A DNA stretch of 64,000 bases, taken from Verrucomicrobiia bacterium (GTDB lineage: Bacteria > Verrucomicrobiota > Verrucomicrobiia > Limisphaerales > UBA1319). Of the stretch, positions 29,867-35,310 are shown piece by piece; positions within the stretch are counted from its first letter, which is position 1; the number at the start of each line of letters is the position of its first letter. The notes below the pieces were generated by a model, which was not told where the DNA came from, ran no database searches, and was given only the letters and a program-made list of their open reading frames with translations. The translations under genes and the position numbers were made by a program. The stretch covers positions 4,608,001 to 4,672,000 of the forward strand of contig OY760937.1 in assembly GCA_963664225.1 (NCBI GenBank), written 5' to 3'.

Positions 29867-29972
29867 GACGCCGCCCAGGACATGGCCTTTTCAAGTGATC
29901 GACCGCGAGGAGGGGATTTTTGCGTTCAACCGGTTGACCACCGGTTGACTGCGGTTGACTGCGGTTGAACGG
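29867..29972 (+). repeat. ~100-bp direct repeat, left copy (contains TCAACCGGTTGA palindrome and four CGGTTGA motifs)
   Basis: Aligns by eye with 35215-35310 (e.g. ttgcgttcaaccggttgaccac.ggttgactgc). Confidence 0.85.
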
Positions 29973-30027
29973 GAAATTGGGTGACAGATCGATTAGGACG
30001 TCAGGTTTCAAACGCGACAAGACAGCC

Positions 30028-30450
30028 ATGAACCCCAGAGTCATCGTCAGGATCGCCGCGACCCTCACCGCATTGTTGGCGGTGGCGGCGCTCGTGGTTC
30101 TGATGGTGGCTGCGGCGCGATTTGTCAGCCAGGAGCCAAACTCGTCCCAGTTCCACAGAAGGCTGGGAGTTTTGGGGCTGTTCGCCATTGTCCCGGTCCT
30201 GTTCATTTGGGCCACGATTCAGGCGTGGCGCGGGACTCCCAAGGGGATTGTTTCGCTGAGTTCGGGGTGGATTCTGTTCGGGCTGGGCGGCAGCATTGGC
30301 TAACTGTTCTGGTTTTTCATGGAGTGGAAAATCCAGGATGCCCTCATGGCAATTATTTGGATTGGCGTATTCCTGTTCGGTGTTTTGATTGCCAGACAGG
30401 AAAACAAAATTGTGCGCCCGACCTCCCGCAGTAAACCAAGCCAGCCATGA
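30028..30450 (+). pseudogene. Small membrane protein with in-frame TAA at 30301; first unit of the array
   Basis: Frame continues past TAA (LFWFFMEW...SKPSQP) to TGA 30448-50, which overlaps the next ATG; 5' end is a degenerate array repeat. Confidence 0.7.
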
Positions 30451-30670
30451 TTCCAAAACTCCTCGATGGACTGTCTGTGGCGTGAGCAAAATCCGACTGT
30501 TGAATTCCGGGAGTATTCCAGAACCGACTCCGTCTAATCAGGAGATGAAAACTGAAGTCGTCCTTGTCCGAGCATTCCAGGGATTTTGCAATGATTTTAC
30601 ACCTTTCTGACATTTGTCCCCCTCAAGAACGCAATCAATGTGGACATGAAAAGTCCGCGACGTCGGAACC

Positions 30671-30778
30671 ATGAAACCCAAACTGATCCTCTGCCTCGCG
30701 CTCGTTTTGAGCGACGGGCTGTTCGATTCCAACGCGCAGAGAAAAGACGGGCAAGACGGTCGTCCAGAACCTCTTTGA
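30671..30778 (+). pseudogene. 35-aa remnant: repeat-encoded signal peptide plus short tail
   Basis: Translates MKPKLILCLALVLSDGLFDSNAQRKDGQDGRPEPL*. Confidence 0.6.
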
Positions 30779-30793
30779 TGAGCTGCCCGCGTC

Positions 30794-31090
30794 GTGAAAG
30801 CGATCAACATTTCAAAGATGCAAAAAGCGAGAACACCTTCTTCCAAAAGATACTTCTGGCAACTTGTCATTTGCCTGGCGTTGGGTCTCGTAATGTATTG
30901 GCCGCTTTATCTGGGAGAACTCGCCGCAGCAATTTACATTTATGGCTTCACCGTTGGCGTTTATTTGTTGATTCAGCTATCAACGCGGTTTCGCAATCCG
31001 CTACACGGCGTATTAATCATCTGTGTTTTAGCCCCGATTGCGTTCTACCTGGGCTGCTGCGCGGTGGCTATGGGCGGAATGGGACGTTAG
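30794..31090 (+). CDS. Small hypothetical membrane protein (array cargo)
   Basis: Three hydrophobic segments; start uncertain. Confidence 0.6.
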   Translation: MKAINISKMQKARTPSSKRYFWQLVICLALGLVMYWPLYLGELAAAIYIYGFTVGVYLLIQLSTRFRNPLHGVLIICVLAPIAFYLGCCAVAMGGMGR

Positions 31091-31102
31091 CACAAGCGAA
31101 TC

Positions 31103-32320
31103 ATGAAACCCAAACTCAACCGCTGCCTCGCGCTTGCCTTTGTTGGTGGCGCTGCCTGCATTTACGCCGCCAGCACTCCGCTGGATCGGGTCGCAGCGGA
31201 GCAACGCGAATTGTCCGTGTTACTGGCCAAAGCCAGTCCGAGCAGTTTCGGCACTAACTCGCCGGACTTGTCCCGCCGTGACGATAATTTTTCCCCCTAT
31301 CTCACCAGGGCAGAGAACGAGCGGTTTGTCCAATTGCTGCGCGATGCCGAAATATCGGCGGCGGTAACGCGTGAACAAGCACTGGCTGCGGTTAAGCAGC
31401 GGCAACTTGACGAGAACTTGCCGGGTTTCCAGTACAACGCTTTGATGGACCTCGTCAATCGAAGATGGCCGCATGATGAAGCAGTGATTGGCTTTTATCG
31501 CGACGCGTTGGCAAGGCGCGGCGAAGTGGCAATCTCTGATTTGTTTTCTCCCACTCCGGGCATTTGGGATGATTCGTTGCTTGAGCCGGTCATCGCAGTG
31601 ATTGAGAAGGCTGGCAAACCGAACCAAGTTCATTGGAACGTTGTGGACCACGCGCTCGCCGTGCTCGACCGTCATCACTCCGTTTGGGAAACGAATACCG
31701 CGATTCCTCCGCGGCTGAGCAAAGCTGTGTTGGCGATGTTTCCCTCCTTGACGAATACTGCGGTTTCCGGCCCGCGACCAGGCGAGCAAATGTGGTGCTA
31801 CGCCCTGCAAATGCTCGCAAAGACCCACGACTCTGAAATGATCCCGGTGCTGCGGCCGTTTTTGACGAACAAAGGGATGGCGGGCGATGGCTGTTATTGG
31901 ATCGTCGAGGCCAATCCGCCATTACGGGCTTGCGATAGAGCGGCCATCACAATCAGACAGCTCCTCGGGGAACGGAACTCCGTTGAGCCAATCGGAATGC
32001 CGGGCCTGCCTTACTGGAACGTGCGCGAGTCATATCCGAAATGGGATGAATGGGACGGAAAGATAGCTGAGTTGCAGCAACAACTTGATGCGCTCGGAAG
32101 TGCGTTACATTTCATCTGCACAAACCATCTGGATACCGCGCAACAAATGATGACGACGCCTGAAGCCATTCAGAGGATTCCAGGCGAAGGCGAAGGCGCA
32201 AGCGCCTGGCGAGTCTCGTGGAAGCACAAAATACCTGTCGGCGCTGCTGCAATTAAAGGCGGCCAACTCCTCATTATCGTCCACGATTCTGGCAAAGTGG
32301 AAAAAGGGTTCAGCGAATGA
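31103..32320 (+). CDS. Secreted hypothetical protein (array cargo)
   Basis: Starts MKPKLNRCLALAFVGG; 405-aa ORF; stop overlaps the next ATG. Confidence 0.75.
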   Translation: MKPKLNRCLALAFVGGAACIYAASTPLDRVAAEQRELSVLLAKASPSSFGTNSPDLSRRDDNFSPYLTRAENERFVQLLRDAEISAAVTREQALAAVKQRQLDENLPGFQYNALMDLVNRRWPHDEAVIGFYRDALARRGEVAISDLFSPTPGIWDDSLLEPVIAVIEKAGKPNQVHWNVVDHALAVLDRHHSVWETNTAIPPRLSKAVLAMFPSLTNTAVSGPRPGEQMWCYALQMLAKTHDSEMIPVLRPFLTNKGMAGDGCYWIVEANPPLRACDRAAITIRQLLGERNSVEPIGMPGLPYWNVRESYPKWDEWDGKIAELQQQLDALGSALHFICTNHLDTAQQMMTTPEAIQRIPGEGEGASAWRVSWKHKIPVGAAAIKGGQLLIIVHDSGKVEKGFSE

Positions 32321-33417
32321 AAACAAACTTCCTCTGTCTCGCGCTCGTTTTGAGCGGTGGTGTGTTCGACTGTTCCCGCATCGTTCGGGCGGACGAAGCT
32401 GTTGCCAAAACGGTTTCATCCAATACAGACCTGAGTTTTGAATCGCTTTTGAACGCGGCATTTCCGGGCAGGCAATTGCATGAGCTTAATTTGTATGGGC
32501 CGGATGCCCGCCAGTTGTCGAGCGAGCGATGGAATCAACTAGCCGTTGCCGCTGCACGCGAGTTGTCGCTCCAGACAACCAATGGCTTGGTGATAACCAA
32601 GGAAACAGTGGCTGGATTGCCTAACGGCTCATTGGCGACCGACTCACCGGAACAAGCCGCGCTTCGCCGATTGTGTTGGAGCAACGAGGAACAGATGACA
32701 TTCCTTCGTGATGCGTCGAACAACCGCCTGTTCAATGACGCAGGGGTCATCGGGCCTCTGATCGCCATGCTCGATTATCCCGGGGAGAAAACCATCATCA
32801 GACAGGAGGCCGCACAGATTCTGTGCCAGTTGACCCTGCGCGGTCGGCCGGAACAGACGCAGATATACCTCTACGTGGATGGGGAAAACAATCCAAAGCG
32901 CCCCCAATATGCTGCGTGGTGGCGAGAGTGGTGGGCAAAAAACAAAAGCAAACATCCCGTTTTCGATTCAACGGTTGAGGCGTTGGTCTCGAACCGCATC
33001 GCAGGCATTGAATTACAGTTGGACAAGGATGTAGCGAAGAATTACTCGGAGTTGAACTATTTGAAGCCCAAATACATTCGATTTGACGTCCATCCAGTGA
33101 ATGTGATTGATGTCAGAGTGGATTCTTCCATCCTCTCAGCAATTGGTTCTCGCACTGCGCCTGATGGAACGTGGCGAGAAGCCGGGGAAGAGGATCACAT
33201 CTATCTTCGCATCACGGCCGGCTTTATAACACCGCCGTTTAGTCCGGTTTCAGACGACACTCCAAAACGTTGGCAATCATTAAAGAAAGAGGTTTTCCGG
33301 GAAACCATCCCGGATACGGATATTGTCATCACGGTTCAGGCAGCCTCGAAGGACGCCGAGTTTGTCCGACAAGTGCGGGCGTGTTTGGCAAAGCTGTCAC
33401 CCATGAAAGAGAATTAA
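32317..33417 (+). CDS. Secreted hypothetical protein with HEAT-like helical segment (array cargo)
   Basis: Starts MKTNFLCLALVLSGGVFDC; VIGPLIAMLD...IRQEAAQILCQLT...WWREWWAKNK. Confidence 0.75.
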   Translation: MKTNFLCLALVLSGGVFDCSRIVRADEAVAKTVSSNTDLSFESLLNAAFPGRQLHELNLYGPDARQLSSERWNQLAVAAARELSLQTTNGLVITKETVAGLPNGSLATDSPEQAALRRLCWSNEEQMTFLRDASNNRLFNDAGVIGPLIAMLDYPGEKTIIRQEAAQILCQLTLRGRPEQTQIYLYVDGENNPKRPQYAAWWREWWAKNKSKHPVFDSTVEALVSNRIAGIELQLDKDVAKNYSELNYLKPKYIRFDVHPVNVIDVRVDSSILSAIGSRTAPDGTWREAGEEDHIYLRITAGFITPPFSPVSDDTPKRWQSLKKEVFRETIPDTDIVITVQAASKDAEFVRQVRACLAKLSPMKEN

Positions 33418-33418
33418 C

Positions 33419-33703
33419 ATGAAGCTGAACCTTGTCCTCTGCCTCGCTCGAGGTTTGCTTTACACATATTGTCTAATTCTCCCGTACGGCCTGTTTGTGG
33501 CTTGGACGGGAATTAGAATGTGGAAAGATCCTCAGGCATCCTGGTGTGAGATTGTTCTTGGCGCTCTTGGTATATCTTTTTACACCTTCGCCACATGGTG
33601 GTATTTCAGCCTGCCCTTGGTCGCCGCCATAGCGTGGTGGTTGTATCTGCGGAGACAGGCCAAGGACTCACTCAACAAGCAATCGCCCCACGCTAAACCA
33701 TGA
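33419..33703 (+). CDS. Small membrane protein (array cargo)
   Basis: Starts MKLNLVLCLA; hydrophobic; TGA is provided by the next repeat. Confidence 0.7.
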   Translation: MKLNLVLCLARGLLYTYCLILPYGLFVAWTGIRMWKDPQASWCEIVLGALGISFYTFATWWYFSLPLVAAIAWWLYLRRQAKDSLNKQSPHAKP

Positions 33704-33738
33704 AACCCAAACTCATCCTCTGCCTCGCGCTCGTATGA
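33700..33738 (+). other. 'Empty' repeat unit: 12-codon mini-ORF MKPKLILCLALV*
   Basis: ATG 33700 overlaps the upstream TGA; its own TGA overlaps ATG 33735. Confidence 0.8.
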
Positions 33739-34160
33739 AACCATATTTTACTTCCATTGCTTTAGGCGTGGCAGCGTCCGCGATAGGCAGTGCCATCCTC
33801 GCGTCTGGTTCTGCCATAACCGCCGGGGCGACAAAGCATGTTTTGGAGGCATGGCCGTGGCTATTTTCTGTTTCTGTCATTCCCTGCGCGATTCTTCCAG
33901 CAATTGTCCTCCGGCTTGGTTCTAAAGTTTCATTTCGTGGCGGGCATTTTCTCTGCGTCTTCCTGCTCGCCTTTGCTGCCGTGGCCTTGGCTGGTTCTGC
34001 CGGCATTGTTATTGTGGAATCCGCGAGACGCGGCATCGCCAACGTAAATGTTTCCGGATATTTGGTTTGGTGCTGGGTCTATGCAATTGCTCTGCTGCCA
34101 GTCTCTTATCCTTTGGCGGCACTGGTTCTTTACCTTTCCGAAAAGAGACGCGAGCCATGA
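33735..34160 (+). CDS. Four-TM hypothetical membrane protein (array cargo)
   Basis: Starts ATGAAACC (MKP); hydrophobic; stop overlaps the next ATG. Confidence 0.72.
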   Translation: MKPYFTSIALGVAASAIGSAILASGSAITAGATKHVLEAWPWLFSVSVIPCAILPAIVLRLGSKVSFRGGHFLCVFLLAFAAVALAGSAGIVIVESARRGIANVNVSGYLVWCWVYAIALLPVSYPLAALVLYLSEKRREP

Positions 34161-34546
34161 AACCGAAAATTACCCTCTGCCTCGCGCTTGTTTTGAGCGG
34201 CGTTTTGCTCGGCTGCTCAACCAGCAACCGACATTCTGCCACGGCTTCTGTGTTGAACCACGGGCAGTCGGCTGTAGAGATAGTTCTCGCCGGCCACCAT
34301 TTTGCGCCTCCCACTACCGTCCGAGGGACAGGCGACGTCGTGTGGACAATTGCGGCAAGGCCACGCTCAAATTCCGCCGTCGAAATAGCGCAGGTTGAGA
34401 CGCACCCGGATGGTCGAATCACGGTCGAGATTTACAGTTGCCAGTATGTCGCGAGCGAGTGGGCCAGGCTTGGTCCCAAGTTTGCCGATCCCGGCCTGAA
34501 ACAGGAGGCAATGACGATGCTAGACCAGATTCTCAGAATACCATGA
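34157..34546 (+). CDS. Hypothetical lipoprotein (array cargo)
   Basis: MKPKITLCLALVLSGVLLGC with lipobox LLGC. Confidence 0.78.
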   Translation: MKPKITLCLALVLSGVLLGCSTSNRHSATASVLNHGQSAVEIVLAGHHFAPPTTVRGTGDVVWTIAARPRSNSAVEIAQVETHPDGRITVEIYSCQYVASEWARLGPKFADPGLKQEAMTMLDQILRIP

Positions 34547-35043
34547 AACCCAAACTGTCGCCTTACCACTTTCAACGCCGTCGGCCTGGTGCATTGGATC
34601 ATCTGCAGATTGCGGAAGCAACGGCGCAGGCGGTTGCCGAAATTCGCGCTCTGACCGGCTGGCTCTTGAGGGAAGGTTGCCCCGCCGTGGCGCTGTGGGG
34701 CTTTTCGCTAGGCGGACGATTGGCGGGATTAACAGCATGCCGCGATTCGCGGCTGGCCGCTATCGTTCTGACCAAACCCGGCGTGCGCAGCAATCTCTCG
34801 TTCCCAGAACTGGTCCTCTGGCGTGGCATTCGGGAAACGTTGCAGGGGCAGCGCGCGGAGTGGGCGGCGTTGAACCTGACCTCGTGGACTCTGACCTCGG
34901 CCCAGCCAGCCATCCCCAAGGAGAACATTTTGTTGATCGAAGCGGTCCATGACTTGTTGACGCCGAGAGAACCCCTCGTAAAGGGGTTCGCCCATAGAAC
35001 GGTGCGGTTATGGGCGCACATGGACGATGAAAAGGGTGGGTGA
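34543..35043 (+). pseudogene. Alpha/beta hydrolase fragment fused behind MKPKL
   Basis: PYHFQRR, ALWGFSLGG nucleophile elbow, IEAVHDL; N-terminal part absent. Confidence 0.7.
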
Positions 35044-35054
35044 ATGAGGTCTTG

Positions 35055-35082
35055 AATGGACAATGGATAATTGACAATTGAC
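35055..35082 (+). repeat. Heptamer tandem repeat, four copies
   Basis: aatggac aatggat aattgac aattgac. Confidence 0.7.
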
Positions 35083-35096
35083 CAAGGTGGATAAGA

Positions 35097-35165
35097 ATGC
35101 CGCTCCGCTGGAGCTTGGGTTTTGTCGTTGTTCGATTTCTATAAACATGCCACTCCTACGGAGTT
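35097..35165. repeat. REP-like element (gctcc-ggagc hairpin...ctataaacatgcc...hairpin)
   Basis: Same architecture as 49128-49230 and 49744-49846. Confidence 0.7.
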
Positions 35166-35214
35166 TCTGATTGCGGTCCACCGGGCGGAGGCATCCGGAA
35201 CATCCGCAGACGAG

Positions 35215-35310
35215 GACGCCCCCCGGCCATGACCGTTTCAAGCGATCCTCCGCAAGGAGTGGATTCTTGCGTTCAACCGGTTGACCACGGGTTGACTGCA
35301 GTTTGAATGG
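35215..35310 (+). repeat. ~100-bp direct repeat, right copy
   Basis: Aligns with 29867-29972. Confidence 0.85.

Follow-up and report, generated by a model that had tools for sequence, protein, structure and literature searches.

Lipoproteins of the Erp group (OspE, OspF, Elp) of Borrelia burgdorferi have similar leader peptides in front of unrelated mature parts (PMC12018966, introduction). The same combination was found in a soil Verrucomicrobium and is the subject of the present work. In a window of 64,000 nucleotides (nt; the whole stretch of DNA analysed, contig OY760937.1 of GenBank assembly GCA_963664225.1, positions 4,608,001 to 4,672,000 of the forward strand, read 5' to 3') from a Verrucomicrobiia bacterium, positions 30447-35043 hold a tightly packed row of unrelated genes, all on the plus strand. 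Most of them are headed by a coding repeat of ~60 nt, called R in the following, which reads (aa)ccATGAAACCCAAACTC… and codes for MKPKLILCLALVLSGGLFGC; the part of a gene that stands behind R is referred to as its cargo. In our judgement the locus is probably a cassette-like array held together by R as a recombinogenic coding repeat, and the gene overlaps and the 'empty' copy of R that it contains would be by-products of packing and reshuffling.

Among described systems, the Erp group is the nearest analogue. Recombination reportedly moves the shared leader onto different Erp genes, in work attributed to Marconi in 1996 and Akins in 1999. The erp genes reside on cp32 prophage plasmids, typically with one locus per replicon. 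In contrast, R heads chromosomal head-to-tail arrays of up to 12 or more units, with ATGA junctions (in which the stop codon of one gene overlaps the start codon of the next), with empty units and without phage context. Also, unlike in the 'upstream homology box' of Erp genes, conservation of R begins only ~4-5 nt before the ATG, and the loci lie on the chromosome among housekeeping genes.

With integron arrays the locus shares co-oriented, compact, promoterless-looking cassettes of largely unknown function and variable order, each of them bounded by a repeated element. In contrast to integrons, no intI-like gene was found among 31 open reading frames (ORFs) of the window or 68 ORFs in the flanks of other R loci. 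Unlike the attC site, R is a 5'-terminal, coding, sequence-conserved direct repeat with variable junction depth and does not form an imperfect palindrome. The vsp, vlp, vsa and vpma loci of Mycoplasma are clusters of lipoprotein genes in which a highly conserved 5' region with the signal peptide is the recombination substrate; they have adjacent site-specific recombinases, DNA inversion or promoter switching, and mature parts that are internally repetitive. Here, in contrast, all copies are direct, no recombinase was found among the same ORFs, and the cargo consists of unrelated enzymes, repeat proteins and membrane proteins. As in ATGA-coupled operons and two-cistron designs, a stop codon lies within the next start codon and a short upstream ORF (33700-33738) ends on the ATG of a cargo gene (33735). 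Unlike dedicated leaders, the leader ORF would here be a relic of a signal-peptide module, and its coupling is putative. In conotoxin superfamilies the signal is conserved, including its silent sites, beside highly divergent mature regions. Those genes belong to eukaryotes, a separate exon encodes their signal, and their mature peptides are homologous though fast-evolving, whereas the genes headed by R are prokaryotic and their cargo is unrelated. In the full-text literature searched, which leaves out subscription journals, no description of R was found, and none of the papers contains its peptide strings.

Results

Copies of R in the window and in the genome

The 52 bases at 33694-33745, to which a preliminary description had drawn attention, read aaaccATGAAACCCAAACTCATCCTCTGCCTCGCGCTCGTATGAAACCATATT and comprise the end of a 94-amino-acid (aa) ORF (A-K-P-stop), a 12-codon ORF and the start of a 141-aa ORF. 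Copies of R are more than chance matches. A 35-nt pattern found 2 matches in the window at no more than 3 mismatches, compared with 0 in 100 shuffles, and the 35-nt head of the unit at 33700 is identical to 30671-30705 except for one N position. For an 11-nt core, 7 matches were obtained as opposed to 1.34 expected, 6 of them on the plus strand at 30689-34185. Repeat finding returned 5-6 in-register copies (at 30666, 31098, 32309, 33418, 33695 and 34152) and an 18-nt stub at 34540; within the window all copies are direct, that is, in the same orientation. In the 5.78-Mb genome R is confined to this locus, where all 4 matches at up to 8 substitutions fall.

Conservation of R in other genomes

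A pattern scan over 151 genomes of the same order detected R in 4 of them, and a DNA search of relatives revealed three copies in one locus of G013, a genome from a different family. When an exact pattern was scanned against one genome per species, 30 stretches on 24 contigs of 19 other assemblies were obtained, mostly as same-strand clusters. Sixteen of these 19 assemblies are titled Verrucomicrobia, Verrucomicrobiia or Limisphaerales, and the other 3 are bins with other names. At these loci, too, R heads runs of genes on the same strand, and one 13.7-kb contig carries no fewer than 12 units. R is not confined to arrays, since it also heads a 202-aa gene inside an operon of the BatD/MoxR/DUF58/VWA (aerotolerance) type (L016:4959-5606). 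At three loci (L023 at 516; L032 at 800, minus strand; L034 at 5512, minus strand) the first R unit starts with MKPKIIL and is preceded by a common, conserved leader of ~45 nt, possibly an extended form of R that stands at the head of arrays.

In an ungapped profile of 65 units, conservation sets in at about -4 (AACC), peaks from +1 to +45 and falls stepwise to background by about +58, where the codon for the lipobox cysteine is located. Clearly, this conservation extends to the choice among synonymous codons. In 12 units from two loci which had been retrieved by cargo homology and not by DNA pattern, the consensus codon was used at 117 of 135 positions with the consensus residue, when 44.1 would be expected from the codon usage of the cargo. 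Similarly, for codons 11-17 of 66 pattern-found units, which lie outside the search pattern, the consensus codon was present in 68-96% of cases versus 16-42% expected. In nine cross-genome cargo pairs, identical residues within R share their codon in 78 of 94 cases; in the cargo regions of the same pairs codon sharing amounts to 30-67% in eight and to 90% in the ninth.

Stop and start codons at the junctions

Direct reading of the sequence agrees with the reported ATGA stop/start overlaps at 30447, 32317, 33700, 33735, 34157 and 34543, with the upstream ORF ending on each TGA, and also with the statement that four upstream proteins (ORF ends at 30450, 33703, 34160 and 34546) have a terminal proline from CCA-TGA. 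Overlaps of this kind are enriched; they occur at 6 of the 10 junctions in the window and, across the arrays, at the end of 33 of 78 upstream ORFs (42%), most other junctions lying within 2-28 nt. As a rough baseline for the same genome, 375 of 9716 long open stretches (3.9%) end in this way. Among 89 units, 82 start with ATGA; CC stands directly before 46 of the units and AACC before 29. Because R begins with ATG-AAA, usually after (A)AACC, an upstream ORF in the -1 frame ends with …(K)P-TGA, and the conserved 5' flank (A)AACC accordingly provides the terminal (K)P of the upstream protein.

It had been proposed that the repeat supplies both the stop and the start. This is literally so in one reading frame, in which R brings a stop besides its start codon, but the stop that is used belongs to the cargo. 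In both families for which copies with an overlap and copies with a spacer are available, TGA is found at the same codon in either situation, at odds with the proposal that cargo lacking its own stop is rescued by the junction. In the 211-aa family one copy ends with …NLLR-TGA and a 17-nt spacer to the next ATG, and in the other copy the same TGA forms part of the ATGA that follows. The 529/523-aa family shows the same behaviour. In three further cargo families the C-terminus is shared and is followed by an own TAA or TGA and by spacers of 1-16 nt. In P0002 and P0003, the closest homologs of the 405-aa cargo, the C-terminus is the same K[GV]F[SG]E, and a more distant homolog has a TAA and a 24-nt spacer. 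The suggested comparison of cargo homologs, intended to reveal whether the C-terminus always abuts ccATGA, thus gave a negative answer, as the position of the stop codon is kept with or without an adjoining repeat. Since homologs keep their stop at the same codon, the ATGA overlaps are explained by loss of the spacer onto the TGA of the cargo itself; judged from these alignments, they are a product of compaction and not a rescue of stop-less cargo, and the overlap as such is ordinary biology.

An SD-like (Shine-Dalgarno-like) tetramer is present in only 10 of 89 units, and promoter-like or terminator-like sites inside the array are not more frequent than in shuffles. A single transcript, with translational coupling across the ATGA junctions, is inferred; these two points bear on it only indirectly.

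The 'empty' 12-codon unit

Upstream of the 141-aa membrane cargo (33735..34160), a unit at 33695..33738 consists of aaacc and the first 35 nt of R. As had been described, 33700-33738 reads MKPKLILCLALV followed by a stop, and this TGA is part of the ATGA with which the 141-aa ORF opens at 33735. In L047, a locus of a metagenome relative, the orthologous 141-aa gene is preceded by a version of 20 codons that starts with GTG (VKPKLIPGLALVLSGAPPSP) and differs from that of the window by a 27-nt indel; it also ends with ccATGA on the first ATG of the cargo, in keeping with translational coupling. Since L047 carries this version, the empty copy of the window is not a random scar, and on comparison of the two loci the unit is inherited together with the membrane gene behind it. 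The stop-on-start geometry has been kept despite the change in length and SD-like motifs are scarce, which makes a role in reinitiation plausible: the 12-codon unit could act as a leader ORF on which the ribosome stops at the ATGA and starts anew.

Short units are not restricted to this gene. There are 18 distinct units of less than 60 codons among the arrays, and by our reading a short unit or stub closes 7 of the 12 multi-unit arrays for which 1 kb or more of downstream sequence is available. In a third, unrelated case a 21-codon unit ends in ATGA on a 304-aa ORF. Solo units of 27 and 19 codons (L018:1487-3520, and L021 downstream of 4308, respectively) stop 4 nt before a homologous histidine-kinase gene.

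Junction depth and type of N-terminus

The earlier observation that the match to the repeat stops at different depths was borne out by gapped alignment to the consensus, both in the window and in other arrays. In the window, R extends to about +52 at 30671, to about +35 at 31103, to about +29 at 33419, to +35 at 33700 and to +14 at 34543, and it is of full length at 32317 (with a 3-nt gap) and at 34157 (with lipobox). Of the match MKP reported for 33735, the 8 nt ATGAAACC are indeed present; their derivation from R did not stand, as such a match is near chance and belongs to the cargo family, homologs of which start with MKPYL, VKAYL or MKHIL.

That the depth of the junction sets the kind of N-terminus, as had also been suggested, is plausible. 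The unit at 34157..34546, in which R is complete up to the lipobox (LLGC) and heads a putative 129-aa lipoprotein that ends with RIP on the ATGA at 34543, would be of the lipoprotein type; by inspection, MKPK, ILCLALVLSG and LLGC fit the basic n-region, the h-region and the lipobox of the lipoprotein signal peptide (SPII) pattern, and Cys20 is invariant in the family. The shorter modules at 31103, 33419 and 34543 would lead to another type of signal or to none. The unit at 32317 has an atypical VFDC, and the other units of the window lack the lipobox cysteine. Modules that are cut after about LVLSG run, by inspection, into cleavable-looking ends (…VFAQN, …ANAAAT), into membrane anchors or into nothing of this kind.

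The signal in front of a cargo also differs between genomes. Distant homologs of the 129-aa lipoprotein have unrelated signal peptides with the cysteine aligned, and only a homolog with 91% identity carries R. In L047, cargo with R corresponds to a G013 homolog with a different signal peptide (homology judged by eye), and one cargo domain stands directly behind R in one genome and ~100-200 residues further in in another.

Order of cassettes and probable scars of recombination

In other arrays, 41 of 53 cargo proteins have no Pfam family, and the rest belong to HEAT, TPR, serpin, GH16, M14, beta-propeller and similar families. Cargo families recur between genomes at 37-93% identity. When 12 cross-genome cargo pairs were compared, the downstream neighbour was alike in 0 of 11 evaluable cases and the upstream neighbour clearly alike in 1 of 12, one more match of 16 residues probably being R itself. 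The 141-aa cassette of the window is 84% identical to that of L047 at the DNA level, and both neighbours differ; the shared sequence reaches from the cc before the remnant of R to the ccATGA of the next unit.

At the end of the row, a terminal stub of R (14 nt, MKPK) continues in frame into an alpha/beta hydrolase, of which residues 127-283 remain (34540..35043). The ORF starting at 34543 aligns, from its residue 5 on, with residue 127 onwards of an alpha/beta hydrolase of G031 (328 aa; 43% identity over 169 residues), and the genome contains no further part of the hydrolase gene. MKPK is therefore fused to the middle of a gene remnant, which shows that at least some junctions are products of illegitimate recombination. 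The remnant keeps the G-F-S-L-G nucleophile elbow and has a weak likeness, below cut-off, to the RcgR lactone-hydrolase family. Another scrambled unit is P0066 from a metagenome (135 aa), in which a fragment of the 405-aa family lies between two copies of R and is read in frame into the second one.

Remaining features of the locus and its surroundings

The locus is flanked by housekeeping genes, with UbiA and MqnC-like genes upstream and a gene for an AI-2E transporter downstream. The first gene of the region (30030..30450, plus strand) encodes a four-helix membrane protein of ~136 aa and is broken by an in-frame TAA at 30301-30303, where the intact homolog in G013:C55 has a Gln codon. Its tail ORF (30319-30450; 43 aa) stops on the ATGA at 30447, and the idea that the ORF ending there is a separate gene was therefore rejected. 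An additional R unit at 30030 was likewise discarded, since this N-terminus matches its own family in G013:C55. At 30447..30485 a stub of R encodes MIPKLLDGLSVA followed by a stop; it was assigned from the repeat family and from alignment to the consensus, although this copy is very degenerate. It is followed by a copy near consensus to about +52, with the lipobox cysteine lost, which heads only a 35-codon ORF (30666..30778), and by a 98-aa predicted membrane ORF without R (30794..31090) for which no family was found and whose stop TAG lies 12 nt before the next unit.

The unit that follows (31103..32320) combines R to about +35 with the 405-aa cargo, the stop of which is the TGA of the ATGA at 32317. 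The next one (32317..33417), with a full R (3-nt gap, VFDCS), carries a 366-aa cargo that has no similarity to the 405-aa protein beyond the signal region. A diverged R (to about +29) then heads the 94-aa membrane ORF (33419..33703), which ends with AKP on the ATGA at 33700; the 141-aa ORF behind the empty unit has an N-terminus of its own (MKPYF…) and ends with REP on the ATGA at 34157. For the cargo of the window no Pfam or NCBIfam family was obtained except for the hydrolase fragment, itself below cut-offs, and atlas matches reached at most 0.86, with HEAT-like leads only.

Two copies of a dispersed intergenic repeat, both on the plus strand and 86% alike, bracket the locus at 29874..29956 and 35221..35303. 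A genomic island with an att duplication was considered and rejected, since this 83-nt direct repeat has at least 20 other intergenic copies in the genome. A second dispersed repeat family is present at 35100-35190 of the window, with at least 10 copies spaced ~200-220 nt apart in a 2-kb stretch at G000:C1:2566421-2568412.

Discussion

If the locus is an array of cassettes held together by R, its features could be accounted for in the following way. The flagged 52 bases contain a shortened copy of the ~60-nt coding repeat, from which each gene would take its start codon and, for a signal peptide of the Sec or lipoprotein type, the n- and h-regions. One cassette would consist of R and the cargo up to the stop of the latter; cassettes with unrelated cargo are lined up head to tail, in an order that differs between genomes. 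R would serve as a portable block of homology, and recombination, deletion or duplication between copies, or between a copy and unrelated DNA, would create, reorder or truncate cassettes. Selection for compactness and for coupled expression would then trim spacers to ATGA, the spacer being lost where the cargo stop is TGA and can merge with the ATGA of R in a 4-nt overlap. Such overlaps would most likely couple translation in an operon that is largely devoid of Shine-Dalgarno sequences. The varied junction depth would be a product of recombination and deletion and not of design, a deep junction keeping the lipobox cysteine and yielding a lipoprotein, a shallow one yielding another signal type or none. 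The 12-codon unit would be a remnant of this kind, kept together with the 141-aa gene, and probably a leader ORF. Recombination at R as the mechanism of shuffling is what we infer from cassette order and scars, and a sequence-specific enzyme encoded elsewhere, or a role at the RNA level, may keep ~45 nt near constant across genomes.

Several observations weigh against recombination between copies of R as the basis of the array. The pattern-based sample of R was ascertained on the first 32 nt of R. Identity between R copies is the same within genomes (0.768; 202 pairs) as between genomes (0.771; 3453 pairs; permutation p = 0.62). The conservation is thus left unexplained by simple intragenomic gene conversion, and concerted evolution within a genome, which we had considered, is not supported. 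The sequence comparison would point either to selection on the DNA or RNA sequence of R itself or to cassettes that circulate in a shared pool. Copies of R beside orthologous cargo are barely more alike (0.80) than random pairs of R (0.77). Also, R is not immutable, since in the 405-aa family, which was found independently of R, the N-termini drift, with roughly 8-14 of 15 residues equal to the consensus by our count. Finally, no recombination joints were present in the assembled contigs of four sequencing runs, two of which carry the locus unchanged. In runs X4 and X5 the locus (29900-35300) appears only as short identical pieces, many of them continuing into unlike sequence (shares of 0.32 and 0.74, respectively); these may stem from a related strain with other cassettes or from breaks of the assembly at R.

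A bolder version of the cassette array, in which R is the attachment or homology site of an undescribed cassette system of soil Verrucomicrobia with a coding recombination site, a 'secretome integron' without an integron integrase, seems unlikely to us. If it were true, an ORF joined behind R would gain a start codon, coupling to the preceding gene and a signal for export or lipidation in one step, selection would act on the DNA of R rather than on the peptide, and empty copies of R would mark the points where cassettes exit or enter.

It is rather unlikely that the locus is simply an ordinary operon of paralogous secreted proteins and lipoproteins, in which selection at the protein level maintains a signal peptide typical of the lineage, ATGA junctions result from routine compaction and short units are pseudogenes. 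ATGA is the commonest overlap type in bacteria. It is found 375 times elsewhere in this genome, and the cargo stops are the cargo's own and lie at conserved positions. The decayed genes at the locus (the nonsense-broken membrane gene and the hydrolase fragment) and the N-termini of the 405-aa family, which drift with their cargo, would also be expected of such an operon. Selection on the peptide, however, does not account for the retention of synonymous codons (117 of 135 compared with 44 expected), and paralogy does not account for cargo proteins that are unrelated to each other, for the same cargo with different neighbours, or for one cargo family that occurs with R or with unrelated signal peptides. 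Nor would routine compaction be expected to produce ATGA at 42% of the junctions over a baseline of ~4%.

A low probability is likewise given to R being primarily an element of RNA or translation, either an unstructured A/C-rich initiation region or the target of a common regulator or small RNA (sRNA), to which the array would be secondary. This would fit conservation that reaches 4-5 nt upstream of the ATG and includes synonymous sites, the first ~20 nt that are unpaired in most predicted folds, and the small number of units with an SD-like motif. Also, the remnant in L047, which does not look translated (GTG start, and a proline in the h-region), stays near consensus and matches the copy of the window at 31 of 35 nt (89%); since this is about the identity of the cargo behind it (84%), no special constraint on the remnant needs to be invoked. 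A structured RNA was rejected, as folding of six 90-nt stretches bearing R gave z values of -1.32 to +0.32 and there was no Rfam match at E ≤1; a stable or covarying structure was not detected in R. The conservation of ~45-57 nt goes beyond a typical sRNA seed or initiation region, and an RNA element does not account for the shuffling and the fusions. A site-specific system of the integron kind is very unlikely. In it, a recombinase that is not linked to the locus, or was not recognised as such, would insert and excise units of R and cargo by acting on R, the most plausible point being close to the 5' edge (ccATGAAACC), and every captured gene would gain a start, coupling and an export signal. 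In its favour, the cassettes share one orientation, look promoterless and are shuffled, their boundaries coincide with the 5' edge of R, an empty R stands at the end of many arrays, and the conservation of R within genomes equals that between them, as expected for a site of shared machinery or for a shared cassette pool. Against it, no integrase, transposase, invertase or other recombinase family was found among the 31 window ORFs (14-48 kb) or among 68 ORFs that flank 14 other loci (the scan covering ORFs of 100-120 aa or more within a few kb), the junction on the cargo side varies in depth from +14 to +63 and is not fixed, and R has no inverted-repeat or hairpin signature (fold z -1.3 to +0.3).

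The nucleotide-conserved signal-peptide repeat that heads these cassettes is an unusual variant of the known phenomena of shared leaders and of gene cassettes. For annotation, the locus is a warning that ORFs of 12-35 codons and N-terminally 'truncated' enzymes in such places are junction scars and not genes. With R, selection on the synonymous sites of a signal peptide can also be put to the test across genera, and the empty unit would offer a natural device for coupling by a leader ORF. If the locus is indeed an array of cassettes joined at R, these bacteria would build and reshuffle their repertoire of exported proteins from modules with one nucleotide-conserved head, a gene would gain or lose its signal peptide in a single recombination step, and a third route to cassette-type genome plasticity would exist beside integrons and polymorphic-toxin loci.

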